From Myxococcota bacterium (lineage in GTDB: Bacteria; Myxococcota_A; SURF-8), in contig OZ223209.1 of NCBI GenBank assembly GCA_965140415.1, forward strand, positions 2,336,001 to 2,400,000: a DNA stretch of 64,000 nucleotides. The letters run 5' to 3'. Both the position numbers and the translations under genes were made by a program. The notes below the pieces were generated by a model. That model saw only the letters and a list, made by a program, of their open reading frames with translations. It was not told the origin of the DNA and searched no databases. Below are positions 8,490-51,600 of this stretch, piece after piece; the stretch's first letter is position 1; each line of letters starts with the position of its first letter.

Positions 8490-11240
8490 ATGACAAAGAT
8501 GGTGTACTCGTTTGGTGATGGCAAGGCCGATGGTCGCGCCGACATGAAGAACCTGTTGGGCGGCAAAGGTGCCAACCTGGCAGAGATGAGCAACCTGGGC
8601 ATTCCGGTTCCGGCTGGTTTCACGATTACAACCGAAGTCTGCACGCACTACTCCAGCACGGGTGGGAAATACCCCAAGGGTCTGGACGCCGCTGTAAGCA
8701 AGGCGCTCAAGCAAATCGAAAAAATCATGGGCGCGAAGTTCGGTGACAAGGAAAATCCCCTGTTGCTGTCCGTGCGCTCGGGTGCGCGTGTCTCCATGCC
8801 GGGCATGATGGACACCGTGCTGAACATCGGTTTGAACGACACGACCATTCAAGGTCTGATCGCGAAAACCGGTGATGAACGTTTCGCCTACGATTCTTAC
8901 CGGCGTTTCGTTCAGATGTACTCCAATGTTGTGATGGGCATGGAAGGCCGCATCCTGGAGGACATCCTTGAGAAAGTGAAAGAGAAAAAGGGTGTGGAGC
9001 TGGATACCGATTTGACCGCCGATGACTGGCGCGTCATGGTTAACGCCTTCAAAAAGGAAGTCAAGAAACACACCAAAACCGCCTTCCCGGAAGATCCGGA
9101 AAAGCAGATGTGGGGCGCGATCGGTGCGGTCTTCGAGAGTTGGGACGTCCCACGCGCGATAACCTATCGCAAGTTGAACGGCATTCCCAGTGATTGGGGC
9201 ACGGCGGTCAACGTCATGGCGATGGTTTTCGGTAACATGGGCGATGACAGCGCTACCGGCGTTGCTTTTACCCGCGATCCCGCCACCGGTGAGAAAGTTT
9301 TCTTCGGTGAATACCTGATCAACGCGCAGGGCGAAGATGTCGTTGCCGGTATTCGTACGCCGCAGCAGGTTACACTGTCCGGTTCAAAGAACTGGGCCAA
9401 GAAAGCCGGCGTGAAAGAAGCGCAGCGTAAAAAAGATTTCCCGTCTCTGGAAGAGGCGATGCCGGTCGTTTACAAGCAACTGGTTCGCATTTACCAGGGC
9501 CTGGAAAAGCATTACCGTGAAATGCAGGACATCGAGTTCACCATCCAGCAGGGCAAACTGTGGATGCTGCAAACTCGTACCGGCAAGCGCACCGCAGCGG
9601 CAGCGGTCAAGATCGCTGTCGACATGGTCAAAGAGAAATTGATCTCCAAGAAAGAAGCGGTTCTGCGTGTCGAGCCCAAGAGCCTGGATCAATTGCTGCA
9701 CCCGACCTTCGATCCCAAGGCCAAAACGGTCACGATCGCTCGCGGTCTGCCGGCTTCCCCTGGCGCGGCTTCGGGGCGCGTCGTCTTTACCGCCGATCAA
9801 GCGGTGGAATGGTCCGAGAAGAAAGAAAAAGTCATCCTGGTGCGTTTGGAAACGTCGCCGGAAGACATTCATGGTATGGATGTCGCCCAGGGCGTTCTGA
9901 CTGCACGTGGTGGTATGACCTCTCACGCTGCCGTCGTGGCGCGCGGCATGGGCAAATGCTGTGTTGCCGGTTGCGGCGAATTGAAGATCGACGAGAAGAA
10001 GAAGACCTTCATCGTTAAGGGCAAGACCTACAAAATGGGTGACTGGATCAGCCTGAACGGCTCCAGCGGTGAAGTGCTGGAAGGTTCCGTGCCGACGGTC
10101 GATCCGTCGCTTTCCGGTTCTTTCGGTATCTTGATGAAATGGGCGGACGAATTCCGTCGTTTGAACGTGCGCACCAACGCGGACACTCCAAAAGATTCTG
10201 CGGTAGCGCGTAACTTCGGAGCGGAAGGTATCGGCCTGACCCGCACCGAGCATATGTTCTTCGAAGGCGATCGCATCGACGCCGTGCGCGAAATGATTCT
10301 GGCCGATGACGAAGCCGGTCGTCGCAAAGCCCTGGAAAAACTGCTGCCCATGCAGCAGGGCGACTTCGAAGGTATTTTCAAGGCCATGAACGGCCTGCCG
10401 GTAACGATTCGCGCCCTGGACCCGCCGTTGCATGAGTTTTTGCCGCACACCAAAAAGGACATCGACGATCTGGCAAAAAAACTGGGTGTGAAGCCCAAGA
10501 CCATCAAGGAGAAGGTCGATAGTCTGCACGAATTCAACCCGATGCTGGGGCATCGTGGTTGCCGTCTGGGTATCGCGTATCCGGAAATCACCGAAATGCA
10601 GGCTCGCGCCATTTTCCGCGCAGCCAAGGCCATGAGCAAGAAGAAGGTCAAGGTGTTGCCGGAAATCATGATCCCGCTGGTGGGACATATCAACGAGTTG
10701 AAACTGCAGGAAGCCATCGTACGTCGCGTGGCCGGTGAAGAACTCAAAGGCACCAAGATCAACTACATGGTTGGAACCATGATCGAGTTGCCGCGTGCCG
10801 CACTGACGGCGGATGAGATTGCCGAGAGCGCCGAATTCTTCAGCTTCGGAACCAACGATCTGACTCAGACCACATTCGGTCTGTCGCGCGACGATGCGGG
10901 TAAATTCCTGCCGTTGTATGTCGATAAAAAAGTGTTGCCGCATGATCCCTTCCAGTCCATCGATCAGACCGGTGTCGGCAAACTGATGCAGATCGGTGTC
11001 GAGTTGGGACGTGGAACGCGCTCCAATCTGAAGATCGGTATCTGCGGCGAGCATGGCGGTGAGCCTGCATCCGTGGAATTCTGCCACAAGATCGGTTTGA
11101 ACTACGTTTCCTGTAGTCCTTACCGCGTACCGATCGCACGTTTGGCGGCGGCGCATGCTGCGCTAAAGGATGGAGCGGCTGCTCCGAAAAAGGCTGCAAA
11201 ACCCAAAGCCAAAGCGAAGGCGAAAGCCAAAAAGAAGTAA
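8490..11240 (+). CDS. ppdK: Pyruvate, phosphate dikinase
   Basis: [34 protein letters not shown] (phospho-His), [28 protein letters not shown]. Confidence 0.98.
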
Positions 11241-11263
11241 TTCGCGCTGAGGCGAATTAGAGC

Positions 11264-11300
11264 AAAAAGGGCGGATCGGGTTTTTCTCGATCCGCTCTTT
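11264..11300 (+). terminator. Rho-independent terminator after ppdK
   Basis: AAAAAGGGCGGATCGGG-tttt-CTCGATCCGCTCTTT stem-loop with A and T flanks. Confidence 0.75.
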
Positions 11301-11501
11301 CTGTTGTGGGCAGTAGTGGTTATTTTGTGAGAGGCATGGGATAAGAATTCGGGTACCATTGGCGAAACATGTTGGCAATCCTACTGTTATTAAAGGATTC
11401 AGTATTGGTAGGATTCCAAAATAGACCGCAAAAATCACATAAACATCCTAATAAATGTGCTAATATAACAGCAAACAAACATTCAGCAGAAATGAGCAAA
11501 A

Positions 11502-12947
11502 ATGAATGCGTCATGGAATGTTACTGCTGTTTTAAAACTGCTCACTGTATCGATGCTTACTTCCTGCCTGTTATGCGGGGCGGCTGTCGCAGCAGAAGAG
11601 GTTGTTTCTCCTAAGGGCGAGGATGGCATAATAGAACAGCAAGAGGAGCCGTCGTCGGGATGGAATCTGCATGTGTTTTCCAGGCAGGAATATCGCCTGC
11701 GAACGTCCACCGATCCAAGCGAACGCGATCAGGATATCCGGCTTTCTCTTGATTTCTCTGCAATCGATCCTTCCGACCGTTTCGGAGCGGAGCTTTCCAT
11801 GGGTTTTGCTTACGATCTGGACGGCGTCCCGCAAAAACCTTCGAGTATCGGATTCAATTCTATTTACGATGAAAACGATCCGGGCTGGTGGTTCGATATC
11901 TATACTCTGGCGCTGGATTATCACTCGTCGGGAATTGTGCAACTCGCCCGTGCGGGACGACAGGTAGCCCCGTACGGACATCCGGCAGTATTTGATGGCG
12001 TCAGCTTTGTTTTGCGTCCGGCTCGGAAATATCTGGATCTGTATTTACTGGGAGGTCGCAGCGTTCACTTTTTTGATTTGGACAGCGATATCTTCGAAGA
12101 CTGGCTGGCGGCGGGAGGCGTGGTCATTCGACCGATGCAGGATTTGCACTTCGAGTTGGAGTATCGCTTCAATCTGGAAAAGAAGCAGACTCCTAGTAAC
12201 AATGGCTGGCCGCAATACGATAAAACGGATGTCACGGATCATGCATTCAGCTTTACCGGTTATTATCGCTATGAAGACTGGTTGTATGCGAAAGCGAAAG
12301 TACGAACCGTAAACAGCGATGTTGCAGAAGCATCCGGTTCGTTGCACATGAACTGGACCCGATACGAACTCGGTTTCCAAGTGGATGTGAAAGCACAGCC
12401 TTCAACGTTGAATGAAATTAGTGAAGCGGAAGACCCTTACTTTTTCGTTTTGGGAACGAGTTTGCCATACATTGCTTACTCTGCCGAATTGAATAAAGCA
12501 TTCAGCAGCACCAAAGGAATCTACGCTCTTAACCTTGGTTACGAAGGGCGGCAGTTACTGAAGGACAACGAACAAACTTTCAATCGAAATTACAACCGGG
12601 CATATTTGCTGTTTAGTGCTGTGGATATTGTGGTCAAAGGACCGTTTCTGAGTTTCGTTTTCGAGCGCTGGGCAGACGGTGCAATTTTGGATGGCAATGG
12701 CTTGTGGACGGTTGGGGGCTCGCTGGGTCATGATTGTCGCTATCTGCGTGCGGAAGTTGGCAGTTTCTATCAGCGATACAAGTACACCTATTACAGCGAT
12801 GTTGATGAAATCGATAGCGTGCGTACGGTCTATGCTGATTTGAAGGGGAAGCCTTTGGATTGGCTGGCAATTACGGCGCGTTACGAGTTGGAAATATTCG
12901 ATCGTTACGTGCATGTCGTCACGGTCGGCCTGATACAGAATTACTGA
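11502..12947 (+). CDS. Putative outer-membrane beta-barrel (cytochrome-associated porin)
   Basis: Signal peptide ending AVA-AEE; many amphipathic, aromatic-rich beta strands; C-terminal VTVGLIQNY ending in an aromatic residue; directly upstream of multiheme cytochromes. Confidence 0.7.
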   Translation: MNASWNVTAVLKLLTVSMLTSCLLCGAAVAAEEVVSPKGEDGIIEQQEEPSSGWNLHVFSRQEYRLRTSTDPSERDQDIRLSLDFSAIDPSDRFGAELSMGFAYDLDGVPQKPSSIGFNSIYDENDPGWWFDIYTLALDYHSSGIVQLARAGRQVAPYGHPAVFDGVSFVLRPARKYLDLYLLGGRSVHFFDLDSDIFEDWLAAGGVVIRPMQDLHFELEYRFNLEKKQTPSNNGWPQYDKTDVTDHAFSFTGYYRYEDWLYAKAKVRTVNSDVAEASGSLHMNWTRYELGFQVDVKAQPSTLNEISEAEDPYFFVLGTSLPYIAYSAELNKAFSSTKGIYALNLGYEGRQLLKDNEQTFNRNYNRAYLLFSAVDIVVKGPFLSFVFERWADGAILDGNGLWTVGGSLGHDCRYLRAEVGSFYQRYKYTYYSDVDEIDSVRTVYADLKGKPLDWLAITARYELEIFDRYVHVVTVGLIQNY

Positions 12948-12955
12948 GGAACACC

Positions 12956-13816
12956 ATGAACACCGGGCAAAAAAATAAACGCGGTTCCATCTTGTTGCTA
13001 GCGGTATGTTTTCTTGTGGTGATTATCGGTACGGTAGCGCTTGCACAAACCGCTAAAAGCTTTAGCCATCAACTGCATTTGTCTGAGGATATCGGAGCGC
13101 AATGTTCCGACTGTCATGGCTCCGGCGCAAAAACCGAACTCGCGCCGACTGAAGAACGTTGTGGACAATGCCATGAAAGCGCGATGCTGCCTTTGTTGGC
13201 AAAAAGTTCTTCTGCGCGTCCTCTTCGATTGGAGTTTTCCCATGAACTTCATGCGCAGTCTTTTTCCTGCGAGGAATGCCACAAAGGCGTAAATGAAGAT
13301 CTTCCTCCCGTTTCCGGTATGCCCACCATGAATTTCAGCGATTGCTCGGCCTGTCACAGGGAAAACGGAATCGAAGTAGATGAGAAAAACTGTACCGCCT
13401 GCCATGGCAAGGATCGTCGCAAGCTGAAACCGGAAGACCACAAAGCGAGTTGGCTGGCACGTCATGGTGTGGAGTCGCAGTGGCGCGTTTTCGACGATCA
13501 CGGGCAGCAGTGCACACTCTGCCATCGTTCTCAGGCTTGTGTAGCCTGTCATCGTCAGCGAAAACCGGCGGATCATAATGGCTTGTGGCGTATGCGCCTA
13601 CATGGGCGTCAGGCGGACTGGGATCGTGAACGCTGCAAAACCTGTCATGAGTCAGGGACTTGCATTCGCTGTCATAAAGATACCAAGCCCAGCAATCATA
13701 TCGGTAGCTGGCGCTATCTGCACGGCAAAGCCGCGCCGTCAGGGCTCTCGGCTAACTGTCGGGTTTGCCACCAGCCGGGCTATTGTGCGAGCTGTCACGC
13801 GACGGGAGGGAAATGA
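12956..13816 (+). CDS. Secreted multiheme cytochrome c, 11 CxxCH
   Basis: ATG 12956 after GAGG; signal peptide ending ALA-Q; c3/c7-like FSH motifs; 11 CxxCH counted (CSDCH to CASCH). Confidence 0.92.
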   Translation: MNTGQKNKRGSILLLAVCFLVVIIGTVALAQTAKSFSHQLHLSEDIGAQCSDCHGSGAKTELAPTEERCGQCHESAMLPLLAKSSSARPLRLEFSHELHAQSFSCEECHKGVNEDLPPVSGMPTMNFSDCSACHRENGIEVDEKNCTACHGKDRRKLKPEDHKASWLARHGVESQWRVFDDHGQQCTLCHRSQACVACHRQRKPADHNGLWRMRLHGRQADWDRERCKTCHESGTCIRCHKDTKPSNHIGSWRYLHGKAAPSGLSANCRVCHQPGYCASCHATGGK

Positions 13817-15474
13817 TGCAAAGGTTGCTTTCCCTTTTATCAAAAGCGTTGTTCCTTTCATTGCTTCTTTTATTGTTAGGCGTAGTTCTTTTCGGTTGCG
13901 CTGATAAAACATTACCAGATGGCTTGCCGGGTGACTATGAATTGGAAAGCCCCGTACATCCTACGGATTATGTAAAATCGGAGCGGCACGGTTTAGAATA
14001 TTTGCAGGATTACACCCGTTGTTCGTTCTGTCATGGACAGCAGCGTCAGGGTGGTATAAGCGGTGTCGTTTGCGATGAATGCCATCAAAGTATGACAGGA
14101 CGTCGCATGGATAGCGATTGCGGGTTCTGTCATTCCGCTCCTTCATTTTCCAAGCAGCAAGACGCCCGCTTCGAAGATGTCTATGGAAACAAGGATAAGG
14201 CGCTCGCAGCGGTCGGGGCGCATGACGCGCATGCGCTGGAAACGGAAATCCATACCGCATATGCTTGTAGCGTATGCCATCCTGTCTATGCAAGTTTGGA
14301 TGATTCCGGGCATTTAGACGAGACTCCCGCTGCGGATGTGGTCTTTACCGGGTTGGCCGGTAGCCGGGCTGCGTATGATTCCGGTGAATGTTCTTCCATC
14401 CTATGTCACGGCGATGGCGTTGTGACCGCAGATGCACCAGCCTGGACGGATGAAAACCCGCTTGGTTGCAACTCTTGTCACGATGACGGTGAACACCCGG
14501 AGAGCATGTACGGCAGTCACGAAGTGCACGTGCTGGCGGGGTTGACCTGCGCGGGCTGTCACATGGATGTGGTGGATGGGCAAAACACCATTATAGACAA
14601 GCAGTTGCATGTAAATGGAGAGAAAGACATCCTTCTGGCATTGGGACAGTACGATCCCGCCACTAGAACCTGTACCAACACCTGTCACGCCGATGCCGAA
14701 TGGGGCGGCGAGTATCACCCGAGCGGTTTTGTTGCAAAGGAGCGGCACGGGCGCGCATTCATTCTGCACGAGCAGGATTGCACTCGCTGCCATGGCGAGG
14801 ATCTGCAAGGTGGCGGTAGCGGTGTTTCCTGCGATGGCTGCCATCTGAAAAATGCAGATGCGACATTGGCCGGAAACTGCACGTTCTGTCATGGTGGCGT
14901 GGACAACGAAAGCGGCGCTCCGCCGGAGGGCGTTTTTGGAGAGAGCGAGCGAAGCGATCCGCAAGTCGGGGCGCATAGCCGACATGTAAGCACTACGGAG
15001 CACCATGGCGCATTTGATTGCAGCGAATGCCACACTAAACCGGCGAGCTTTACCGATGCCGGTCACTTGGACGGCGACGGCCAGGCGGAAGTTGCATTGA
15101 AGTCAGGATCGTATGATTCCGAAAGCGGCGTTTGCTCGGCGAATGAGTGTCACGGTAATGGCAGAACGAGCGGTTCTTCTCCGACATGGACTTCCGTGCA
15201 AGCGCTGACTTGCACTGGTTGTCACGATGATGGCAGCCGACAGGCGAGCAGTCGTTTGTCTGGAATGCACGACAAGCATGTTCGAGATCTTCGCCTGGAT
15301 TGCACGAACTGCCACAAGGCCGTACTCGATGCTCAGGAAAACTTCGTAAACGTCGGCTTGCACGTCAACGGACAGGCGGATGTCGAGTTGTCCATTGGCA
15401 CCTACAATGCACAAAACAAAAGCTGTTCCACCTCCTGCCATGAAGAAATCGAATCCTGGTACGAAGATCGCTGA
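13813..15474 (+). CDS. Multiheme cytochrome c lipoprotein, CxxxxCH/CxxCH type (12 CX2CH + 2 CX4CH + 2 CX3CH)
   Basis: ATGA overlap with the upstream gene; lipobox VLFG-C; heme motifs counted directly; two homologous halves. Confidence 0.92.
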   Translation: MMQRLLSLLSKALFLSLLLLLLGVVLFGCADKTLPDGLPGDYELESPVHPTDYVKSERHGLEYLQDYTRCSFCHGQQRQGGISGVVCDECHQSMTGRRMDSDCGFCHSAPSFSKQQDARFEDVYGNKDKALAAVGAHDAHALETEIHTAYACSVCHPVYASLDDSGHLDETPAADVVFTGLAGSRAAYDSGECSSILCHGDGVVTADAPAWTDENPLGCNSCHDDGEHPESMYGSHEVHVLAGLTCAGCHMDVVDGQNTIIDKQLHVNGEKDILLALGQYDPATRTCTNTCHADAEWGGEYHPSGFVAKERHGRAFILHEQDCTRCHGEDLQGGGSGVSCDGCHLKNADATLAGNCTFCHGGVDNESGAPPEGVFGESERSDPQVGAHSRHVSTTEHHGAFDCSECHTKPASFTDAGHLDGDGQAEVALKSGSYDSESGVCSANECHGNGRTSGSSPTWTSVQALTCTGCHDDGSRQASSRLSGMHDKHVRDLRLDCTNCHKAVLDAQENFVNVGLHVNGQADVELSIGTYNAQNKSCSTSCHEEIESWYEDR

Positions 15475-15510
15475 ATCAACACTTGTTGTCCAGTCTTCGC
15501 AGGCTTCTAC

Positions 15511-15539
15511 TTGAATCCTCCAATCAAAAGCTGTAGGAT
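15511..15539 (+). promoter_or_regulatory. Candidate sigma70 promoter of the HAO-like gene
   Basis: TTGAAT-N17-TAGGAT in the 123-bp intergenic gap. Confidence 0.4.
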
Positions 15540-15597
15540 CAATTTGTTTTTCAGATCATGTGGCGGTGCATCTTTAGACTCAAAATAAGGAAATGGC

Positions 15598-17115
15598 ATG
15601 TTGCAATTTGTACCTAGAGTTACCTTGTGTACCTTCATGTTCTATGCTGCGCTGGGGGGTGGCTTTCAGAGCCGCGCGTTTTGTGAAGAAGCTGCGAAAG
15701 CAACGATCAGTAGCGAAACGGAAGAATGCCTGGACTGTCACCGGCGTGTGACACCGGGTATTGTGGCGGATTGGCAGAAAAGCCGACATGCCGTAACGAC
15801 TCCCAATCAAACGAAGAACCTACCGGAAAACGAGCGGAGAATGTCCAGCCTGAAAACTGTTCCCGAAGCACTTCGCAATTCGGCGGTCGGTTGCTACGAG
15901 TGTCACTCGCTTAACCCCACGAAGCATCGGGATAATTTCGAGCATATGGGGTACCAGATCAATGTCGTTGTTACTCCTGATGATTGCAAAAGCTGTCACG
16001 AAACGGAAGCAAAGCAATATGCCGACAGTAAAAAAGCTCATGCGTTAGCTAACCTGCGGGATAACCCCATTTTCCAGGCTTTGGTGGAAGAATCCATTGC
16101 CATTCCAGCGTCTCATCGTGGTCAATTGCCGGACAGTTCCGGGCGGATTTCGGCGCAGCATGAAGCCTGCTATTCCTGCCATGGAACGGAAGTCAAGGTG
16201 GTTGGAAAGCTGAGCCTTGAAGATGAAGAGGCAGGGGAGTTCGAAGTTCCCAAACTGAGCAACTGGCCCAATCAGGGCGTTGGAAGAAAAAATCCCGACG
16301 GCAGTTTGGGTTCTTGCACGGCTTGTCATGCACGGCATGCCTTTTCGATTTCGGTGGCCAGAAAACCCGAGACCTGCTCGCAGTGCCACGCGGGACCGGA
16401 CGCGCCTGCTTATAAAGTTTTCATCGAAAGCAAGCATGGCAACCTGGTGAAATCGGATTCCGCTTCGATCGACTGGCAGGGGATGCCCTGGAAAGTCGGA
16501 ACGGATTTCCAGGCGCCGTCTTGCAGTGTGTGCCATAGCAGCGCGCTTGTGACGCCGGATGGCAATGTGATAGCCAAGCGTACGCACGATTTCGGGGCGC
16601 GTTTGTGGACGCGCATTTTCGGCCTGCCCACGTCGCATCCTCAGCCGGTGCATGGCAATACCGCGACTCTTAGAAATAAAGACGGGCAACCGCTACCGAC
16701 TTCGTATGATGGAACGCTTGCCAGTGAAGGATTGCTGAAAAAGGATGAAATTAAAAAACGGCAGCAGCAGATGCAGGCAATCTGCAAGAGCTGTCATTCA
16801 ACCGGCTGGGTGCAGGGGCATTTCGAGAAGTTCGAAAATACGGTAGATGAGGCGGACAAGATGGTGCTGGCCGCTACTGCGTTAATGCAGCAAGCCTGGA
16901 AAGAGAAACGCTGCGATGCGAAAAATATGTTTGACGAAGAACTGGAGCGGCTGTGGGTGAAACAGTGGCTCTACTATGCCAATGCGCTGCGGCTGGGTTC
17001 GGCTATGAGCGGCTTTGATTATTCGAGCTTTCAGCTTGGCTGGTTCGATCTCACCGGCAACATGGCCGTCATGCAGAAACGATTTGAAGAGTTGGAGAAG
17101 GGGGAGAGGAAGTAA
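15598..17115 (+). CDS. Octaheme cytochrome c of the hydroxylamine oxidoreductase (HAO)-like family
   Basis: Signal peptide; 8 CxxCH; HAO-like segments TPGIVADWQKSRH, NPDGSLGSCTACHARHAFS, ARKPETCSQCHAGPDAP...ESKHG, APSCSVCH, MQAICKSCHS; helical C-terminus. Confidence 0.88.
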   Translation: MLQFVPRVTLCTFMFYAALGGGFQSRAFCEEAAKATISSETEECLDCHRRVTPGIVADWQKSRHAVTTPNQTKNLPENERRMSSLKTVPEALRNSAVGCYECHSLNPTKHRDNFEHMGYQINVVVTPDDCKSCHETEAKQYADSKKAHALANLRDNPIFQALVEESIAIPASHRGQLPDSSGRISAQHEACYSCHGTEVKVVGKLSLEDEEAGEFEVPKLSNWPNQGVGRKNPDGSLGSCTACHARHAFSISVARKPETCSQCHAGPDAPAYKVFIESKHGNLVKSDSASIDWQGMPWKVGTDFQAPSCSVCHSSALVTPDGNVIAKRTHDFGARLWTRIFGLPTSHPQPVHGNTATLRNKDGQPLPTSYDGTLASEGLLKKDEIKKRQQQMQAICKSCHSTGWVQGHFEKFENTVDEADKMVLAATALMQQAWKEKRCDAKNMFDEELERLWVKQWLYYANALRLGSAMSGFDYSSFQLGWFDLTGNMAVMQKRFEELEKGERK

Positions 17116-17187
17116 CGACTTAGGACAACTAATTAATATTATGTCTGAGAAACGAAGTTCCAGTTAATCTAAGAATAAGGCAAAAAA

Positions 17188-17415
17188 ATGGCAATTGTAA
17201 GAAGACTAGAAAAAATAAATATCGATAAAGAGCACAAGCACACCGAAGTGAATGCGAGCTATTCATTTGTCGAGCATGATGGGCAGAAATATTTACAGAT
17301 AGACACTTATGGCTCAGAGACCCGCAAAATCCAGGGGAAGAAAAGCCAATCCATTCGGTTTTCAGTCGAGGCTATCGAACAGTTGAAAGCAATTATTGAT
17401 AAGGAGTATGAATAG
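17188..17415 (+). CDS. Small hypothetical protein (75 aa) in an AT-rich patch
   Basis: AAGG upstream; compact sequence with YLQIDTYGS...GKKSQSIRF and a C-terminal helix; occupies an otherwise empty gap. Confidence 0.7.
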   Translation: MAIVRRLEKINIDKEHKHTEVNASYSFVEHDGQKYLQIDTYGSETRKIQGKKSQSIRFSVEAIEQLKAIIDKEYE

Positions 17416-17494
17416 CTGGGTAGCTTGTCTGATTCATCCTGATATTTTGCGTTTGTTGTCAAATACACTGCATTTGAGCTAAGGTTTTGTATCC

Positions 17495-17636
17495 AGCTTG
17501 AGTAGGATGGGTATTTGCAATTCCCATAACATGGGAAAGAATGAATTGATGGGCAAAGCTTGAGTAGGATGGGCATTTGCCATGCCCATCACATTGGAAT
17601 GAAGATTAAGATGGGCAAAACAATTACCCATTCTAC
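17495..17636. repeat. GTAG-type REP-like palindrome cluster (REPIN-like)
   Basis: GTAGGATGGGTA...TTCCCAT at 17502, GTAGGATGGGCA-TTTGCCA-TGCCCATC at 17564, and an inverted copy GATGGGCAAAACAATTACCCATTCTAC ending at 17636. Confidence 0.65.
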
Positions 17637-17671
17637 ATCTGAAGACTGAAGACTACTGAAATCCCCCCCTC

Positions 17672-19444
17672 CTACATATCCGCGCCGAAGAACTCCGGGA
17701 AGCGGTTGGACATTTCGGCGTGCAAGAGTAATTCGGTTTCGGAGACGTTGTCGAACTGCATGGCTTCGCGTGTCAGCCACAGCGCCTGCTCCATCGTCGA
17801 ACGGCGTATGATCTCCTTGACGTAGGGAATAGACGACGGCGGCATACCCAACTCGGTAATACCCAGACCCACCAACAGCAGGGTGTAAATCATTTCGGAA
17901 GCCATTTCACCGCACAGCGCCACGTCGATGCCGGCCTGATGCGCGTTATCGCAGGTGCTGCGCAACAGCCTAAGAATGGCCGGATGCAGCGGCGTGAACA
18001 TGTGGGCGAGCTGTTCGGAGTCGCGGTCTACCGCAAGGGTATATTGAATCAGGTCGTTGGTGCCGATCGAGAAGAACTGTACCCGCTTCGCCAGTGAATC
18101 GCTGACAATGGCGGCGCTGGGCAACTCGATCATGACACCTAACGGCACATCGGGATTGAAGACGACCTTCTCCCGGTCCAGCTCCTTCTTGATGTTATCC
18201 AAAATACCCATAAGCCATTCCAATTCGGCCACACCGGAGATGAACGGCAACAGCAGCTTGATCTCGCCATGCGCTGCCGCTCGATAGATGGCGCGTACCT
18301 GCGCCCGGAAGTAGGCGTCGTTCTGGTGAATCGCCCGGATGGCGCGGCTGCCGAGCGCCGGATTGGTTTCCTTGGGAAAGGCCCAGTAGGAGGGGCGCTT
18401 GTCGCCGCCGATATCGTGAGTGCGAATCGTAACGGGGCCGACGTCCGCAAGCCGTACCAGGCGACGATAATACTGGTAGTGCTCCTCTTCCGTGGGCGGT
18501 TCGGAGCGTCCCATGTACATGAACTCCGTGCGGAACAGGCCGATGCCTTCCGCCCCGTATTTAAACAGCGCCGGAATTTCCTCCAGCGATTCGATATTGC
18601 CTTTCAGTGTGATGCGCGGACCATCGAGCAGCAGGGCCGGTTCCGCTTTCTGCGAAAGCAGCAGCGACTCCATCTGCTCGTGCTTCTTTTCCTTCTTGCG
18701 GTAGTCGTCGTATTGACGCTGAGTGGGGTTGATAAAAAACAGCCCCCGCGTACCGTCCAGGATGACCTCGTCGCCGTCTTGAATGGAGGACATCAAACCT
18801 TCAAGACCTAAGACCGCCGGGATGTTCATCGAACGGGAAATGATGGCGATATGACTGGCCTTGCCGCCTACTTCCAGCGCCAGCGCACCCACCTGCTGCG
18901 TGTAGAAATTGCTCGCGTCTCCTGGGGAAAGATAGCGCGTGACGATGATCGCACCGCTTTCGATATCATCGAAACTTTTATGCTCAACGCCCATCAGGGC
19001 TTCGAACACACGAAAGTTGACATCCAGCAAATCCGCCTTGCGCTTGCGGATATGCTCGTCGTCGATCTTGTCGAATTCGCTGATGAACTGTTCCACCGTA
19101 AGCTTTAACGCCCACTCCGCATTGAATAAATGCTTGCGGATAAAGCGCTCCACAGTAGTGTTCAAGAGGTTGTCTTGCAGCATCAACTCGTGGGCTTCGA
19201 GGATATAGTAGTGGTTTTCCGCTGTCTGGCGGTCTATGCGATTCTTTTGATTGCGAATCTGTTTGATGGCGACATCCACGGCAGAGGCAAAACGCTCCAT
19301 TTCGTTTTCAACTTGAACCGCTTCGATGCCTTGCATCGGCACGGACAGGTTGGGAGAGTCGATAAGCTGCGCCCTTCCGATGCGAATGCCGGGTGAAACG
19401 CCGATGCCTTGCAGCACGATTCCTTTCTTTTTCTTCGCTTCCAT
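17672..19444 (-). CDS. ptsI: Phosphoenolpyruvate-protein phosphotransferase (PTS enzyme I)
   Basis: Start moved to 19444. GIGVSPGI, GGKASHIAIISR, GIGLFRTEF, ETNPALGSRAIR, FFSIGTNDLIQY, LCGEMA. Confidence 0.95.
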   Translation of the reverse strand: MEAKKKKGIVLQGIGVSPGIRIGRAQLIDSPNLSVPMQGIEAVQVENEMERFASAVDVAIKQIRNQKNRIDRQTAENHYYILEAHELMLQDNLLNTTVERFIRKHLFNAEWALKLTVEQFISEFDKIDDEHIRKRKADLLDVNFRVFEALMGVEHKSFDDIESGAIIVTRYLSPGDASNFYTQQVGALALEVGGKASHIAIISRSMNIPAVLGLEGLMSSIQDGDEVILDGTRGLFFINPTQRQYDDYRKKEKKHEQMESLLLSQKAEPALLLDGPRITLKGNIESLEEIPALFKYGAEGIGLFRTEFMYMGRSEPPTEEEHYQYYRRLVRLADVGPVTIRTHDIGGDKRPSYWAFPKETNPALGSRAIRAIHQNDAYFRAQVRAIYRAAAHGEIKLLLPFISGVAELEWLMGILDNIKKELDREKVVFNPDVPLGVMIELPSAAIVSDSLAKRVQFFSIGTNDLIQYTLAVDRDSEQLAHMFTPLHPAILRLLRSTCDNAHQAGIDVALCGEMASEMIYTLLLVGLGITELGMPPSSIPYVKEIIRRSTMEQALWLTREAMQFDNVSETELLLHAEMSNRFPEFFGADM

Positions 19445-19451
19445 CCCGCGT

Positions 19452-20174
19452 TCAATCCTCATCGAATTTCGAATTGAATAACTGCACGATCGTTTCCACT
19501 GCAAGTCTGGCGTCATCGCCGACGGCGTGGACGCCTAAATCGGTTCCTTGCGCGGCGCCGAGCATCAAAACACCCATAATGGATTTAGTATCCACGGTCA
19601 GATCGTCCTTGGTCAGGGTGATCGTACTTTGAAAGCGGCTCATCGACTTGACCAGCTTGGCGCTTGTACTTGCATGTAATCCCAATTTATTCAATACGGT
19701 CACGGTTGCCCGTGCTTCGTGATGGTTACCCATAACCTGTGCGTCATCGCTTTCTATGTGTGGTTCATCCTGCGAGGTAAGCGGCTTGGAGAAATGCGGA
19801 CGGATGCTGTTTTTGGCCGAACGCTCGGCAATCAAAGCCAGTTCCTGCAAGGGAATGCTGTTACGATTCGCTTCCAGCACTTTTAACAGCATCGCCAAGT
19901 TCAATCCGGTGACCACCGCCACAGGGTGACTTTCCAGAAACGAAAGGGCAACATTACTGGGCGTTCCCCCGTAGATATCAACCAGGATCAACACGCCGGA
20001 ACCGTTATCCTGTTCCTGTAGGATGTTGGACAGCTGATTTTCAAGCAGTTGGTAACTGATACCCGGTTGCTGGGAAAGAGTGGCGACGTTTGGCTGCTCG
20101 CCGACAATGCCACGCGCATTCTGTAACAGCGCTTCACCTAAATTCGCATGTGTCATCAATACGACACCGATCAT
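19452..20174 (-). CDS. Fusion of PTS EIIA (mannose-type) and HPr
   Basis: N-terminal IGVVLMTH...GVLILVDIYGGTPSN...VTGLNLAML (EIIA-Man); C-terminal NKLGLHA...VDTKSIMGVLMLGAAQG...F (HPr); one continuous ORF. Confidence 0.9.
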   Translation of the reverse strand: MIGVVLMTHANLGEALLQNARGIVGEQPNVATLSQQPGISYQLLENQLSNILQEQDNGSGVLILVDIYGGTPSNVALSFLESHPVAVVTGLNLAMLLKVLEANRNSIPLQELALIAERSAKNSIRPHFSKPLTSQDEPHIESDDAQVMGNHHEARATVTVLNKLGLHASTSAKLVKSMSRFQSTITLTKDDLTVDTKSIMGVLMLGAAQGTDLGVHAVGDDARLAVETIVQLFNSKFDED

Positions 20175-31182: not shown

Positions 31183-32526
31183 ATGATGCGAAGGATTACG
31201 CTTTTGGTCCTGTTGGGAATGATGTTTTTCATCGTGATTTCAGGATGTTCCGATGAGGATGATCCTATAGCGGATGGCGATGTCGCGGATGGTGATGCGA
31301 CAGACGGCGATCAGTCGGCTGATGGCGATTCTTCCTCCGATGGGGATCAATCGACGGATGGTGATATCTCGCCAGATGGTGATGTCGCTCCCGATGGTGA
31401 TCAATCTGCGGATGGTGATTTTTCCGAAAGCGAACAGGTGGATGGCGATCAAAGCGAAAGCGAAGCCGATGCCGAAGCCGTTCAGGATCTGCACCCTCCG
31501 ACAATTGAATTCTCCGATTTGCAACTGTATCAGGGAGTCAAAAGAAATCAAGAGGTTACTGTAACCGTTACCGACGATGTGGCGGTCAGCAAAGTCGAGC
31601 TTTTTGTCAATTCAAATCCCGATCCCGTTGCGGCGAGTTATTCGGAACCGTTTACACTCACCTGGGTAACAGATGCTTACTTCAACGGTATTGCCTCGAT
31701 TCGTGCGGTTGCCACTGATGGCAGTGGCAAGCAGGGTGAAACGGAGCGATTGCCTGTGGTGATTATCAATGGTGGATTGGAAGCGACGTTAGTTGAAGGC
31801 AATGCGGGTTTCCTTTCCATTCCTGAAGACTATGACGGCACCCAGGAAGTAGATGTCAAACATCATTGGAACAACCCGGAAAACGTGTGGCGCATCATGG
31901 GACTGTTGGCCTTCTGGCCGCCTACAAGAGAGGCTGACTGGGATCTGGAACTGACGATGGGAACGGGCTATTGTCCACATTCCGGAATGGCGTATCCGGA
32001 ATCGTTGATTATTGATTCGCAAAGTCCCATGTGGGTGGATGTCTCCTTCCTTGACGAAATGCCTACGGGACAAAACTTCATACACATCAGTCCACTCAAT
32101 GCCGTCGAGCATAAAGGCGAGTACCTTACGCTGGTGCTTCGGGTCTTTCTCTTTCATGATCCGCTGATTGTCGATGGTGATATCGACAATGATGGCACGG
32201 ACGGCGATTGGGTCGATAGCGAATGGGTTGAGGCGGATGCTGTAGATGGCGATGTTGAACAATACGTTCCGGTGGGACATTCGGAAAATCTCAATGGCGT
32301 TCGGCATCGTCCGAATTATGCCGATCCGTTGAATAACTGTATCGTCTGTCATAGTGCGACATTGGATGGTGGTGTGCGAAGTTGCTATGACTGCCACAAT
32401 GCAGATGATCACACGCTGAGTATACAGGGAAAAATGCACAAGATCGGGACAAGTTCAACCTGCACGGCTTGTCATGGTCCGAATAACAGCGGAGGACTTG
32501 GCCCGGCGTGTTCCAAGTGCCACTAG
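31183..32526 (+). CDS. Lipoprotein: DGD-repeat tether, Ig-like domain(s), C-terminal tetraheme cytochrome c
   Basis: Lipobox ISG-C; 10 plus 3 DGD; Ig-like TDDVAVSKVELFVN...PFTLTW...AVATDGSG; CIVCH, CYDCH, CTACH, CSKCH. Confidence 0.85.
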   Translation: MMRRITLLVLLGMMFFIVISGCSDEDDPIADGDVADGDATDGDQSADGDSSSDGDQSTDGDISPDGDVAPDGDQSADGDFSESEQVDGDQSESEADAEAVQDLHPPTIEFSDLQLYQGVKRNQEVTVTVTDDVAVSKVELFVNSNPDPVAASYSEPFTLTWVTDAYFNGIASIRAVATDGSGKQGETERLPVVIINGGLEATLVEGNAGFLSIPEDYDGTQEVDVKHHWNNPENVWRIMGLLAFWPPTREADWDLELTMGTGYCPHSGMAYPESLIIDSQSPMWVDVSFLDEMPTGQNFIHISPLNAVEHKGEYLTLVLRVFLFHDPLIVDGDIDNDGTDGDWVDSEWVEADAVDGDVEQYVPVGHSENLNGVRHRPNYADPLNNCIVCHSATLDGGVRSCYDCHNADDHTLSIQGKMHKIGTSSTCTACHGPNNSGGLGPACSKCH

Positions 32527-32584
32527 CTGATGATTTCGAAGGCGCATCTAAGAACAATTACATCATTGATAAGAGGAATTGGAA

Positions 32585-33136
32585 ATGAAAAGGGTATTTT
32601 CGGTCGTACTTACAGGAGTTTTATTTTTCACGTTGATCGTGGGATGCAATGAAAGCGATGATCCCACTTCGGACGGAGATATGACGACAGACGGGGATAC
32701 GACCGTTGATGGTGATTCTTCTACTGACGGTGATGTTTCTGTGGATGGAGACACCACGACAGACGGTGACACAACGACTGATGGTGATGTGGCCGTGGAT
32801 GGGGACACCACGACAGACGGGGACACAACGATTGATGGTGATGTGACCATCGATGGTGATGAGGATGCCAGCTCTGCGCCGGATGGTCATACGGAAAATT
32901 TGGATGGAACGTGGCATAAGCCGGGGAAAGAAAATCCTCTGAGTAATTGCACGGCTTGTCATGGTGCTAATCTGGATGGCGGTGTGGGCAGTTGCTATGC
33001 CTGTCACAATTCAAGTGACCATACCCGAAGTCAGCATGGCGTACTGCACAAAATTGGTACGAGCAATAGCTGCACGGTTTGTCACGGTCCGAGTAATACT
33101 GGTGGACTTGGTCCGGCCTGTAACGATTGTCATTAG
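32585..33136 (+). CDS. Lipoprotein: 11 DGD hexapeptide repeats and a tetraheme cytochrome c domain
   Basis: Lipobox IVG-C; CTACH, CYACH, CTVCH, CNDCH. Confidence 0.88.
   Translation: MKRVFSVVLTGVLFFTLIVGCNESDDPTSDGDMTTDGDTTVDGDSSTDGDVSVDGDTTTDGDTTTDGDVAVDGDTTTDGDTTIDGDVTIDGDEDASSAPDGHTENLDGTWHKPGKENPLSNCTACHGANLDGGVGSCYACHNSSDHTRSQHGVLHKIGTSNSCTVCHGPSNTGGLGPACNDCH
32672..32860 (+). repeat. 18-bp degenerate coding tandem repeat (DGDxxx x11)
   Basis: Strict 6-residue periodicity: DGDMTT DGDTTV DGDSST DGDVSV DGDTTT... Confidence 0.9.
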
Positions 33137-33185
33137 GCTTTCAAGCCGACAAAGTGCGATAGCCGTGAACAAGAGGGAGGGATTA

Positions 33186-33593
33186 ATGAAACCGCTATTT
33201 TCATCCTTGCTCGTAATGCTATGTATGCTGTTATTCATGTGTGGATGCGACGAAGACAATTCTCCAAATCCGGATGGTGATGGAACGACAGATGGTGATG
33301 CCGTCACGGATGGGGATGTGGATATGACCGATGTGCCGGATGGCCATACGGAAAATTTGGATGGAACGTGGCATAAGCCGGGAAAAGAAGATCCGCTGAG
33401 TAATTGCACGGCTTGTCATGGCGCTAATCTGGATGGCGGTGTGGGCAGTTGCTATGCCTGTCATAATTCAAGTGACCACAATAAAAACCGGAGTGGTGTC
33501 AAGCATCAGGATGGTTCGAGTAGTAGCTGTTCGACCTGCCACGGTCCCAATAACGGCGGGGGATTGGGACCGGCCTGTAACGAATGTCACTGA
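33186..33593 (+). CDS. Lipoprotein: 3 DGD repeats and a tetraheme cytochrome c domain
   Basis: Start moved to ATG 33186 after GGAGG; lipobox MCG-C; CTACH, CYACH, CSTCH, CNECH. Confidence 0.88.
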   Translation: MKPLFSSLLVMLCMLLFMCGCDEDNSPNPDGDGTTDGDAVTDGDVDMTDVPDGHTENLDGTWHKPGKEDPLSNCTACHGANLDGGVGSCYACHNSSDHNKNRSGVKHQDGSSSSCSTCHGPNNGGGLGPACNECH

Positions 33594-36664: not shown

Positions 36665-39211
36665 ATGTTCGCAAAATCGTATCGTCCACATGGACTGTTG
36701 ATAGCTACACTTATACTGCTCGCAGGTTCCTTTGTCGCTTGTTCAAGTACCGGTGACACGGTTGTCGATGGCGATTTGGAAGGCGATAGTATTTTCGAGT
36801 GCTATACGTTGATCGATTGTCCCCCGGGTGAAATTTGTGAAGCGCATCGTTGTGTGGCGGTTGGACCGCAGGGCGATGAAGACGAAGTTTCCGATGGTGA
36901 TGTGGAATTGGATGCCGATCCGGATCTGGAGCCTGTCGATCCCTGCGGAGGCTGTCTGGATGGACAGATCTGCAATGAGCAGAGCGGCAAATGCGAAACT
37001 CCGATCGATGGGGATGAGGAAATCGAAGAAATGGAAGGGGGGGAAGATGAAGAGATGGATGACGAAACTCCCCCGGTTATTTCCGTGCGTTTCGTGCAAC
37101 CGGAAGCGGATGCCGTTGTGGATTCTGCGGTATTGATCCGCTTGGCAATCGACACATTGGAGCAATACGATACAATCCGTTTGCATGCGGCTGGTTCACT
37201 GTTGCAAGAATTCACCGAACCACCTTATGAAACCCTATGGGACACTTCTGCAATCGAGGAAGGTGAGGCGCTGCTCGTGGTTGAAGTGCTGGGAAACGAG
37301 CGCTTGCTTGCAACCGCCACTCGCTTGGTTTACGTGGATCATAGCGACCCGACGCTAACGCTGACTTCACCGGAGTCCGGTGATGAATTCGGCTATGATC
37401 AACAGATCCAGGTGGAAGCGGATGTACAGGATCATTTGCAGCAAGTGGAATTTTACATCGATGATGAACTGCAAACCACCATCACCGAGTTCGATGCATC
37501 CGGGAAGGTGACGATCAATACCCCGGCGCAAGATCTGTTGCCTGGCGATCATGTGTTGATGCTGCGCGCAAAAGATCGTGTGGATGGGCATCGTCAGGTC
37601 GAAGACGACGTGATCATCCATATCGATACCGAAGCGCCGCAGTTGGTGCTTGGGGGCGTGGCCTGGTCCGAAGAAGATCCTGATGAGGGTGTGATTTTTG
37701 CAGAAACCCCAATGGAAATTCGTTTTGAAGACCTTTCCAACTTGAAACAGGCATACTTTGAGTTAAAGGATAACTTTAACCATACGCTGATAAAGCTTAC
37801 TTCGACGGATGAATTCCCGTATACGATTACGGATTTCGATGTCTTGTTGCCCAGTGGTTCACAGATCTATCCGTTTGAAGTTCACGTCATTGCCAATGCT
37901 ACGGATCAGTATGATCATCAGCAGGGATTCAATCGCCAACTGACGATCAAGCGCGAAAAAATGGTATTCGATACCGAGGTGGAACCGCCTCTCGGTTACG
38001 AGCAGACCTATGCATTGGCTGCGAGTGAAACCAATGGCGCGATCTATGCCACGGTCTACGATCAACTCATTTCAATTACGACCGAAGGAGTGGAGCGTTG
38101 GCGCTGTCAGGCGGAAACGTTGACCTCGTTTGTCTCTGCTCCCATTGTCGTGGAAGGGGGCAATCAGCGCTTGATGGTACTGACTGTTGGCAGTGACGGT
38201 AGCTTGTATGTCAGGCACGACGGGCAATTGGAAGCGGAATGTCTGCGTTTCGATTTCGATCTCGGGTTGTCTGAAGCAGGTGCGCCTGCTGTGGGTGAAT
38301 TGGAAGAGATCGAAGGGGGAGTTCGTCTGCCGGTGTATTCCTGTGCAACAGCCGGAACAAGGACCAAATGTTTTCGTACCTATTACACTCACTTGGACGA
38401 TGCCGAAGCGCAGAATCGGGATTCATTCGACATCGATTGGACCTTCATCGGTGATGTGGATGAAACGGGACCGACGGCGATTGTCCTTCCGAAAGGTGGA
38501 AGTTATACCTGGTTGACGGTGGGTATGGGGCGTCAGGTCGTTTCACTGGATAGTGAAACCGGAATTCGTAAGAATGTGGATCGATTCAATATCGGGCAGA
38601 AAGTCAGCATGATCACGGCCAATCCGTTAGGCAAAGGGTTGATGGCTGCATCTGCGAAAGAATTTCACCTGTATAACTGGTTGTTGACGGAGTTGAATGT
38701 GGTTAACTTCGGTTCGCAAACCCTGGATGAATTCATGCCGTATCAGATCGTTTCGGACTCCGAGGGCAGTATTATGCTTTGTTCGAAAAAGGATTTCGGT
38801 ACGGTAGGGAGTCCCAATGTCAAAGGTGTGGTTACACCGATCCGTATCAGTAACGGTGATTTGGATGAGAACCTGCCGGATATGGTGCTGGAGGGAAAAG
38901 TCGGGGCGACTCCGGTTATCGGTCAGGAAAATATCGTGTATGTAGGTGGTGAGAATGCCAACGGAAATTTGTGGGCGTTCGATTACTATGCCGATACCGA
39001 CAACGATGAGCGTCAGTTGCGTTGGCGTATGCGCTTGCAAACCCGTTTACTTGCTCCATTGGTGATTTCACCCGCCGGGGATCTGCTTCTTATCGACAAC
39101 GAATTGAAGATCCGTCTGATCGATGCAAAAGGAGATTCTGTCGACGCGGAGGCATCCTGGCCGATGTATCAGGCGACCCCTCAACATGGTGGAAATTACC
39201 TGCCGCAATAG
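36665..39211 (+). CDS. Large lipoprotein: Cys-rich/DGD N-terminus, tandem Ig-like domains, C-terminal PQQ-like beta-propeller
   Basis: Lipobox FVA-C; DGD motifs; PPYETLWDT, VDHSDPTLTLTSP and IDTEAPQL Ig-like repeats; GVERWR and QLRWR blades; WPMYQATPQHGG closure. Confidence 0.75.
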   Translation: MFAKSYRPHGLLIATLILLAGSFVACSSTGDTVVDGDLEGDSIFECYTLIDCPPGEICEAHRCVAVGPQGDEDEVSDGDVELDADPDLEPVDPCGGCLDGQICNEQSGKCETPIDGDEEIEEMEGGEDEEMDDETPPVISVRFVQPEADAVVDSAVLIRLAIDTLEQYDTIRLHAAGSLLQEFTEPPYETLWDTSAIEEGEALLVVEVLGNERLLATATRLVYVDHSDPTLTLTSPESGDEFGYDQQIQVEADVQDHLQQVEFYIDDELQTTITEFDASGKVTINTPAQDLLPGDHVLMLRAKDRVDGHRQVEDDVIIHIDTEAPQLVLGGVAWSEEDPDEGVIFAETPMEIRFEDLSNLKQAYFELKDNFNHTLIKLTSTDEFPYTITDFDVLLPSGSQIYPFEVHVIANATDQYDHQQGFNRQLTIKREKMVFDTEVEPPLGYEQTYALAASETNGAIYATVYDQLISITTEGVERWRCQAETLTSFVSAPIVVEGGNQRLMVLTVGSDGSLYVRHDGQLEAECLRFDFDLGLSEAGAPAVGELEEIEGGVRLPVYSCATAGTRTKCFRTYYTHLDDAEAQNRDSFDIDWTFIGDVDETGPTAIVLPKGGSYTWLTVGMGRQVVSLDSETGIRKNVDRFNIGQKVSMITANPLGKGLMAASAKEFHLYNWLLTELNVVNFGSQTLDEFMPYQIVSDSEGSIMLCSKKDFGTVGSPNVKGVVTPIRISNGDLDENLPDMVLEGKVGATPVIGQENIVYVGGENANGNLWAFDYYADTDNDERQLRWRMRLQTRLLAPLVISPAGDLLLIDNELKIRLIDAKGDSVDAEASWPMYQATPQHGGNYLPQ

Positions 39212-51507: not shown

Positions 51508-51600
51508 CAAAACGCGAGGAGCATGGCCATGGACTTTCATCTCGAAGATGCTGCCTGGAACACAAAAATCCGAGTATTCGATGAGATGAAAGTGCCACGG

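Follow-up and report, generated by a model that had tools for sequence, protein, structure and literature searches.

We examined a 64,000-nucleotide stretch of the Myxococcota bacterium assembly GCA_965140415.1 (contig OZ223209.1, positions 2,336,001 to 2,400,000 of the forward strand; hereafter the window, in which all positions are counted) and found three adjacent genes, here called A, B, and C, that probably encode a trans-outer-membrane electron conduit of the porin-cytochrome complex (Pcc) type. From the gene structure, heme motifs, barrel fold, family relations, and synteny, we infer the localization of the proteins, the insertion of B into A, the exposure of C, the direction of electron flow, and the nature of the acceptor. 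The three genes are as follows.

11502-12947, + strand: gene A, 481 aa; proposed conduit sheath, an outer-membrane beta-barrel with a signal peptide, no heme motif, and no plug
12956-13816, + strand: gene B, 286 aa; proposed periplasm-facing wire, a non-lipidated secreted 11-heme c-type cytochrome
13813-15474, + strand: gene C, 553 aa; proposed surface terminal reductase or electron outlet, a lipoprotein cytochrome with 16 motifs

The stop codon of A is separated by an 8-bp gap from the ATG of B at 12956, which is preceded by a GAGGA ribosome-binding site, and the ATG of C at 13813 overlaps the TGA stop of B as ATGA. This tight coupling had been read correctly in the first-pass annotation, a description of the window made from its letters alone. 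Geobacter conduits are recognized by three elements: a multiheme cytochrome in the periplasm, a beta protein integral to the outer membrane, and a redox lipoprotein of that same membrane (PMC6148476). Because all three are found here in one translationally coupled unit, we place the cluster in the Pcc-type class. Its figures (22 strands, 11 hemes, and CX3-4CH motifs in C) lie within the ranges given for Pcc clusters, which have barrels of 18-22 strands, 5-14 hemes on the periplasmic side, and outer cytochromes with atypical CX3-4CH motifs (PMC4245776). Pcc members are defined by their architecture and can be as low as 8% identical (PMC4245776), and the Geobacter conduits reportedly lack homology to one another (PMC6148476). 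Since the class is defined by architecture and its members are little alike, the cluster can be filed as a Pcc-type conduit.

Protein A contains zero CxxCH motifs and begins with a hydrophobic leader that was modeled as a helix (residues 7-27). The AlphaFold2 model of A, built with 24 homologs, had a mean predicted local distance difference test (pLDDT) score of 81.7 and a predicted template modeling score of 0.73, and contained 22 strands between residues 55 and 480. Only ~25 low-confidence residues, a disordered acidic stretch, lie between the leader and strand 1, and a plug is therefore absent. As modeled, A is a large plug-less 22-strand barrel, in agreement with the earlier description of the first open reading frame as a signal-peptide protein with beta-barrel features and with its expectation that this frame would fold as a barrel. 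The lumen of a 22-strand TonB-receptor barrel holds a plug of ~150 residues; a barrel this large and empty could therefore plausibly enclose a heme rod. We also considered A as a TonB-dependent transporter, which the 22-strand geometry would fit, but rejected this assignment on the lack of a plug and of any Plug or TonB_dep_Rec Pfam match. A lipobox-like LTSC in the leader was set aside, as we read the leader as that of a signal peptidase I substrate (AVA-A).

An exhaustive structural comparison with VIA-align placed 22-strand TonB-receptor barrels at the top, with Cir as the best match to A (Z 17.2, 356 residues aligned) along with FyuA (Z 16.6) and BtuB (16.2); usher pores came next (FimD, 16.3). 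Foldseek searches of the PDB with the same model returned generic barrels only (template modeling scores of 0.3-0.5). When PDB chains were searched by sequence, neither A nor its family profile (A1) had a meaningful match, and none was to the MtrB chain 6r2q_B. A is present as a single copy in the genome. Its 23 other relatives in a word-indexed protein collection carry no informative names, and its neighbors in the ESM-Atlas are either unnamed or automatically named "alginate export" or "PEP-CTERM-associated," which we treat as leads only.

Protein B carries 11 CxxCH motifs behind a signal-peptide-like leader without a lipobox, matching its earlier description as an 11-CxxCH secreted cytochrome; from these features it is predicted to be periplasmic. 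Across an alignment of B homologs (35-47% identity), 16 of 16 sequences retain all 11 motifs together with exactly 11 additional invariant histidines, which is the pattern expected for eleven bis-His hemes in ~255 mature residues. Pfam matches of B are of the c7/c3 type. When the B family profile was compared with the PDB, the best match was 3ov0_A (E 5.8e-26, B residues 41-146), which we take to be the GSU1996-type c7-domain "nanowire" dodecaheme cytochrome. This protein has a heme density similar to that of B in a chain of ~300 residues, although the match is limited to the N-terminal part of B and the GSU1996-type protein is a soluble periplasmic one with no known barrel partner. The match of the profile to MtrA (6r2q_A) was weak (E 1.7e-7), and the NCBIfam models of the Ext operons gave sub-threshold noise on B (E 0.39-0.48) and nothing on A. 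Co-folding of A (residues 31-481, alignment A1) with B (residues 27-286, alignment A2) gave a median score of 0.35, compared with 0.36 for one control, and so speaks neither for nor against the insertion of B.

Protein C begins with a lipobox-like leader ending in LFGC, with Cys29 as the lipobox cysteine, and contains 12 CxxCH, 2 Cx3CH, and 2 Cx4CH motifs, which add up to the lipidated cytochrome with 16 putative heme motifs noted at first reading. Its two halves share 38% identity in an alignment of 253 columns (E 1e-56), and each contains 6 CxxCH, 1 Cx4CH, and 1 Cx3CH motifs in register. C is thus an internal duplication of an 8-motif unit. The heme motifs of B and C are not due to chance, because those of B are invariant in all 16 homologs and those of C recur in register in both halves. 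C scored 75.6 bits on TIGR01904, the CxxxxCH/CxxCH domain model named after Geobacter (cut-off 27, four stretches), and 31.6 bits on PF09698 (cut-off 21.7). No other protein of the genome carries TIGR01904, and no carrier was found in 14 control genomes. Searches with C found no solved relative by sequence and no OmcA/MtrC family match. Its 210 database relatives, where named, are called only CxxxxCH/CxxCH proteins, and several come from Myxococcales-titled metagenome-assembled genomes.

We then examined the genomic neighborhood of A relatives in 35 loci obtained from a one-genome-per-species scan with A. By genome title, 22 belong to Myxococcota, Myxococcales, Polyangia, Polyangiaceae, or Sandaracinaceae, 9 to Deltaproteobacteria, and 4 to other proteobacteria. 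In 25 loci, the gene directly 3' of the barrel is of the B type; 21 of these 25 genes have exactly 11 CxxCH motifs, 3 are N-terminally extended, and 1 is truncated where its contig ends. Eight further loci have a C-like lipoprotein gene after the barrel and, 3.2-4.2 kb downstream, a cytochrome with a B-like C-terminus. This cytochrome has 27-30 hemes in seven loci and 12 in one, and its C-terminus is 30-38% identical to B in seven of the eight, the match in the 12-heme case covering only 47 residues. In the remaining two loci, the contig breaks off at the barrel or shortly behind it. With these two cut loci as the only exceptions, the barrel has a B-type gene or module as its neighbor in 33 of 35 cases, and the pairwise distances of A and B are correlated (r = 0.75; 22 loci, 231 pairs), a value reached by none of 2,000 permutations in a Mantel test. 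The genes are thus co-conserved, a condition on which the first-pass annotation had made its proposal depend. C-like tblastn matches were found in 28 of the 35 loci, on either side of the A-B pair and with widely varying size. In Geobacter clusters, too, the periplasmic partner reportedly stays with the barrel and it is the surface lipoprotein that is exchanged (PMC6148476), the same combination of a kept partner and a variable lipoprotein that we see in the A-B loci.

The barrels of the eight loci with a displaced B-like module, together with that of one truncated locus, form a single clade (support 0.996). Their long-wire partners (L024, L027, L029, L035, and L036 at ~10.5-14.2 kb; L031 and L032) have 27-30 hemes in ~690-880 aa, and resemblance to B is confined to the C-terminal ~210 residues. 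Directly after the barrel, this clade has a 10-heme lipoprotein with 2-3 Cx4CH motifs, or a shorter 4-heme one in L031, L032, and L036. Among the extended B-type genes, those in L014 (9400-11244) and L020 (3875-5218) encode 25 and 18 CxxCH motifs, respectively, and that in L008 (9472-10620) encodes at least 14, with the B-like part at the C-terminus in each. The extra hemes of these extended proteins may be a built-in periplasmic extension of the wire.

To place A among more distant barrels, we searched 1.84 billion proteins with its family profile, which matched 607 representatives (50% identity clusters) at E ≤ 1e-3, 473 of them at E ≤ 1e-10. Taken together, the best 150 of the 607 and the earlier A relatives split into a set of 79 closely related sequences and a sister group of 68 (24-30% identity). 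The A family and the sister barrel family are homologous, with an hhalign probability of 100 (E 5.6e-52, 408 columns). We collected 80 metagenome loci of the sister group and counted the 79 with at least 600 nt of flanking sequence. A frame with at least 3 CxxCH motifs lies within 1.5 kb of the barrel in 75 of the 79, and the same is true of all 21 loci whose flanks reach at least 1.5 kb on each side. Most often, the barrel is followed by a 6-7-heme protein of ~200 aa and then by a 500-750-aa cytochrome with Cx4CH motifs, which carries TIGR01904 in both examples scanned; a divergent 9-heme gene often lies upstream of the barrel. In a further branch, the barrel is followed by a 12-14-heme protein of 323-345 aa. 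These proteins match in size the Pcc partners of Anaeromyxobacter and Kuenenia, which is a resemblance only (PMC4245776). Names gave little help: 10 distant representatives were uninformative, and the 12 matches of the sister profile (A3) were all unnamed or "hypothetical."

The broader sister profile matched 49 of 401 genomes of the phylum, 33 of them weakly and in part. Eight of the weak loci were inspected; in six, a barrel-sized open reading frame adjoins frames with 13-30 CxxCH motifs, and the other two are cut by contig ends. The remote barrels that adjoin 13-heme frames may be of the Anaeromyxobacter type. As judged from sequence, the link between barrel and multiheme cytochrome thus holds at three depths of divergence. 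A genome from the taxonomic order of the window's host has a sister-type 513-aa barrel (L041, 529-6064, - strand); the gene directly behind it encodes a lipoprotein of 1069 aa with 24 CxxCH and 7 Cx4CH motifs, and no separate periplasmic cytochrome is in view.

The persistence of this link at three divergence depths is our main argument that A is unlikely to be an ordinary porin. If it were one, A would be a solute or polymer channel, B and C would be electron carriers or stores, periplasmic or membrane-bound, that merely share its operon, and no heme chain would cross the membrane. The structural matches of A are indeed to generic barrels (chitoporin, Occ, AlgE, and TonB receptors), one near ESM-Atlas cluster is automatically named "alginate export domain-containing," and the insertion of B into A is something we infer. 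A general porin, however, leaves unexplained why cytochromes accompany the barrel in 33 of 33 own-family loci with enough downstream sequence, 75 of 79 sister loci, and 6 of 8 remote ones, and no sugar- or polymer-export genes lie beside A in the window. We therefore give the channel only a small chance. A wider proposal, which we hold tentatively and consider rather doubtful, is that A belongs to one large, ancient barrel superfamily that exists only to sheath multiheme cytochromes and that includes the sister family, the 13-heme-linked barrels, and possibly OmbB. The 11-heme module would then be a co-evolving insert that some lineages lengthened into 18-, 25-, or 30-heme wires. If this is true, a single curated barrel model would serve as a cytochrome-independent general marker for non-Mtr extracellular electron transfer in metagenomes.

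In a Pcc-type conduit formed by A, B, and C, A would provide the sheath as a plug-less 22-strand barrel in the outer membrane. B would be a rod of 11 hemes, each with bis-His ligation, that is exported to the periplasm and inserted into the lumen of A, so that its heme chain spans the bilayer. C would be held in the outer membrane by its lipid anchor and docked on the outer mouth of the barrel, where it would take electrons from B, and its 16 hemes would deliver them to an extracellular acceptor (a mineral, humic material, an electrode, or a partner cell). B itself would be fed by quinol-oxidizing membrane proteins with multiple hemes and by cytochromes of the periplasm, the genes for which lie elsewhere in the genome. 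The first-pass annotation had predicted such a trans-outer-membrane wire, and the barrel fold, the co-conservation, and the presence of the three conduit elements support it at the level of comparative genomics.

Among known conduits, the Geobacter clusters OmbB-OmaB-OmcB and OmbC-OmaC-OmcC have the same order of barrel, periplasmic cytochrome, and lipoprotein cytochrome (PMC4589669, PMC4245776). OmaB has 8 hemes compared with 11 in B (and 6-7 in the sister-family partner), and OmcB has 12 motifs compared with the 16 that C carries in two duplicated 8-motif halves. C carries the CxxxxCH/CxxCH domain, for which both NCBIfam and Pfam use a Geobacter-derived name, and OmcB presumably carries it too. 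A TetR-type regulator gene accompanies the Omb cluster, whereas none lies beside A-B-C in the window, and the present host, going by the titles of related genomes, is of an uncultured-type Myxococcota lineage. ExtABCD and ExtEFG belong to the same three-element class, with ~12 periplasmic hemes compared with 11 in B and barrels of 18-21 predicted strands (PMC6148476), but differ either in having a pair of lipoprotein cytochromes (ExtCD) or in having a pentaheme lipoprotein and a different arrangement of the genes. The two-gene pcc clusters of Anaeromyxobacter (Shi et al. 2014, group IV) share a Myxococcota host and combine a barrel with a 12-heme periplasmic cytochrome of 338-344 aa; they lack the outer-membrane cytochrome gene that the cluster in the window has in C (PMC4245776).

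The proposed conduit would work on the same principle as Shewanella MtrCAB (6r2q), with a barrel-sheathed heme rod capped by a surface lipoprotein cytochrome. The MtrB barrel reportedly has 26 strands, compared with 22 in A, and MtrA is a decaheme protein, compared with 11 hemes in B. The parts had been judged from the start not to look like MtrA, MtrB, or MtrC, and our searches agree: A matched no MtrB or PioB model at E ≤ 1, and B scored 15.1 bits on the DmsE/MtrA model TIGR03508, far below its cut-off of 192.2 and thus outside that family. We therefore rejected an assignment to MtrCAB, MtoAB, or PioAB, as the cluster shows no MtrB/PioB, DmsE/MtrA, or OmcA/MtrC family membership.

The suggestion that the cluster represents an uncharacterized conduit family is right in the case of A and B, for which there is neither a name nor a curated model, but not for C, which belongs to the known CxxxxCH/CxxCH family, nor for the layout, which falls within the published range of Geobacter-type Pcc clusters. 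In open-access text we found no description of the A-B family, and in the articles searched Myxococcota are linked to such conduits only through Anaeromyxobacter. Divergent porin-multiheme clusters are reported elsewhere, with four architectures in Acidobacteriota and Verrucomicrobiota described in a preprint (10.64898/2026.05.27.727921). Most likely, the cluster is an unstudied relative of the Geobacter-type conduit rather than a new principle; what is new is the unnamed barrel family with its conserved 11-heme partner, the 18-30-heme long-wire variants, and the size of the surrounding superfamily.

Electron supply to B can be judged partly from related loci. Two relatives have neighboring genes (L021, 3839-7708; L006, 11852-15533) for a NapC/NirT-type membrane cytochrome and an 11-heme cytochrome b561 fusion. 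ImcH and CbcL are the Geobacter inner-membrane quinol oxidases that feed conduits, and the neighbors of the relatives resemble them in kind. The genome that contains the window has 17 frames with at least 3 CxxCH motifs, a 7-heme cytochrome b561 fusion (G000:C1:5246115-5248586), a 13-heme NrfD fusion (G000:C1:1966423-1969647), and a cytochrome c assembly gene.

Several findings weigh against a conduit made of A, B, and C. Neither the NapC/NirT family (PF03264) nor a homolog of the relatives' NapC/NirT-type protein was found in this genome, so the inner-membrane feed into B is plausible here but a candidate only. The AlphaFold model of B, built without hemes, is poor (pLDDT 55.4), and the rod shape of B is therefore deduced from its heme density and family. 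A has no Pfam or NCBIfam match at E ≤ 1, including the models of MtrB and PioB, and MtrB (6r2q_B) was only a generic barrel match to its model (Z 13.1, rank 43 in VIA-align). The sequence of C does not reveal whether the protein is sorted to the outer leaflet or the cell surface, and its exposure is a prediction. The correlation of A and B distances could result from shared descent alone. Finally, distribution is patchy: the A profile matched only 16 of the 401 phylum genomes and picked out no large family of that sample, although the 16 include three of the five other genomes in the taxonomic family of the window's host. Such patchiness, and the lack of a dedicated inner-membrane partner beside the cluster in this genome, would also be expected of a silent or decaying remnant without present function. 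The cluster does not look like one, given that the three frames are intact and keep every invariant cysteine and histidine of their families, that translational coupling is preserved in the 8-bp gap and the ATGA overlap, and that the cytochrome c assembly gene is present. We consider a remnant very improbable.

A fourth cytochrome gene follows the cluster and bears on the direction of electron flow.

15598-17115, + strand: gene D, 505 aa; secreted HAO/IhOCC-like octaheme cytochrome with 8 CxxCH, outside the conserved unit

D lies 123 bp 3' of C on the same strand, with no terminator-like site between the two, and is possibly co-transcribed with A-B-C. It matches PF13447 and PF13435 and, in the PDB, 4qo5_A (E 1.6e-124) and HAO entries (E 1e-14 to 6e-18). 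The chain 4qo5 is Ignicoccus IhOCC, a reductive enzyme of the HAO family. With eight CxxCH motifs and homology to a solved member, D belongs to the HAO/IhOCC octaheme family. As a conserved fourth component of the conduit it was rejected, since a homolog was present in none of the 35 related loci.

The architecture of the complex fits flow in either direction, and related Mtr-type conduits reportedly support inward flow (PMC6148476). The same A-B-C complex could thus work in reverse, as in MtoAB and PioAB, and draw electrons into the periplasm from a donor outside the cell, such as Fe(II), a cathode, or a syntrophic partner; there they could feed reductases such as the HAO-like D. The position of D, so close behind C, would suit a periplasmic electron sink. 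However, the absence of D from all 35 related loci means that it is no general partner, and the quinol-oxidase-type neighbors of the relatives fit outward respiration. No Fe(II)-oxidation marker turned up, although no search was aimed at one. Inward flow is in our view unlikely, and we favor an outward-working conduit.

Outer-membrane conduits decide which bacteria can respire minerals, humic substances, electrodes, or partner cells, and tests so far are limited to Mtr and a small number of Geobacter complexes. The present barrel family accompanies multiheme cytochromes both in genomes titled Myxococcota, mostly uncultured, and in environmental metagenomes. It offers a concrete three-gene unit for heterologous testing, in which the conserved 11-heme module appears to be the barrel-binding unit, and profiles A1 and A4 could extend the marker sets for extracellular electron transfer.

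Genes A to D are co-oriented between two flanking genes, a pyruvate phosphate dikinase-like gene (8490-11240, + strand) and a phosphotransferase system enzyme I-like gene (17672-19516, - strand). A promoter and terminator scan of 11100-17700 gave counts at or below shuffle expectation, and thus no operon boundary. A second, small cytochrome cluster lies ~16 kb downstream, with three frames on the + strand (31183-32526, 32579-33136, and 32961-33593) of 4 CxxCH motifs each. Two of these tetraheme frames have a lipobox-like leader followed by acidic D-G-D repeats. The same N-terminal style, with acidic "DGD"-type repeats right after the lipobox cysteine, is seen in large predicted lipoproteins encoded at 36665-39211, 50113-51507, 51523-53304, 54433-56001, and 60072-61655 on the + strand and at 56273-58849 on the - strand.

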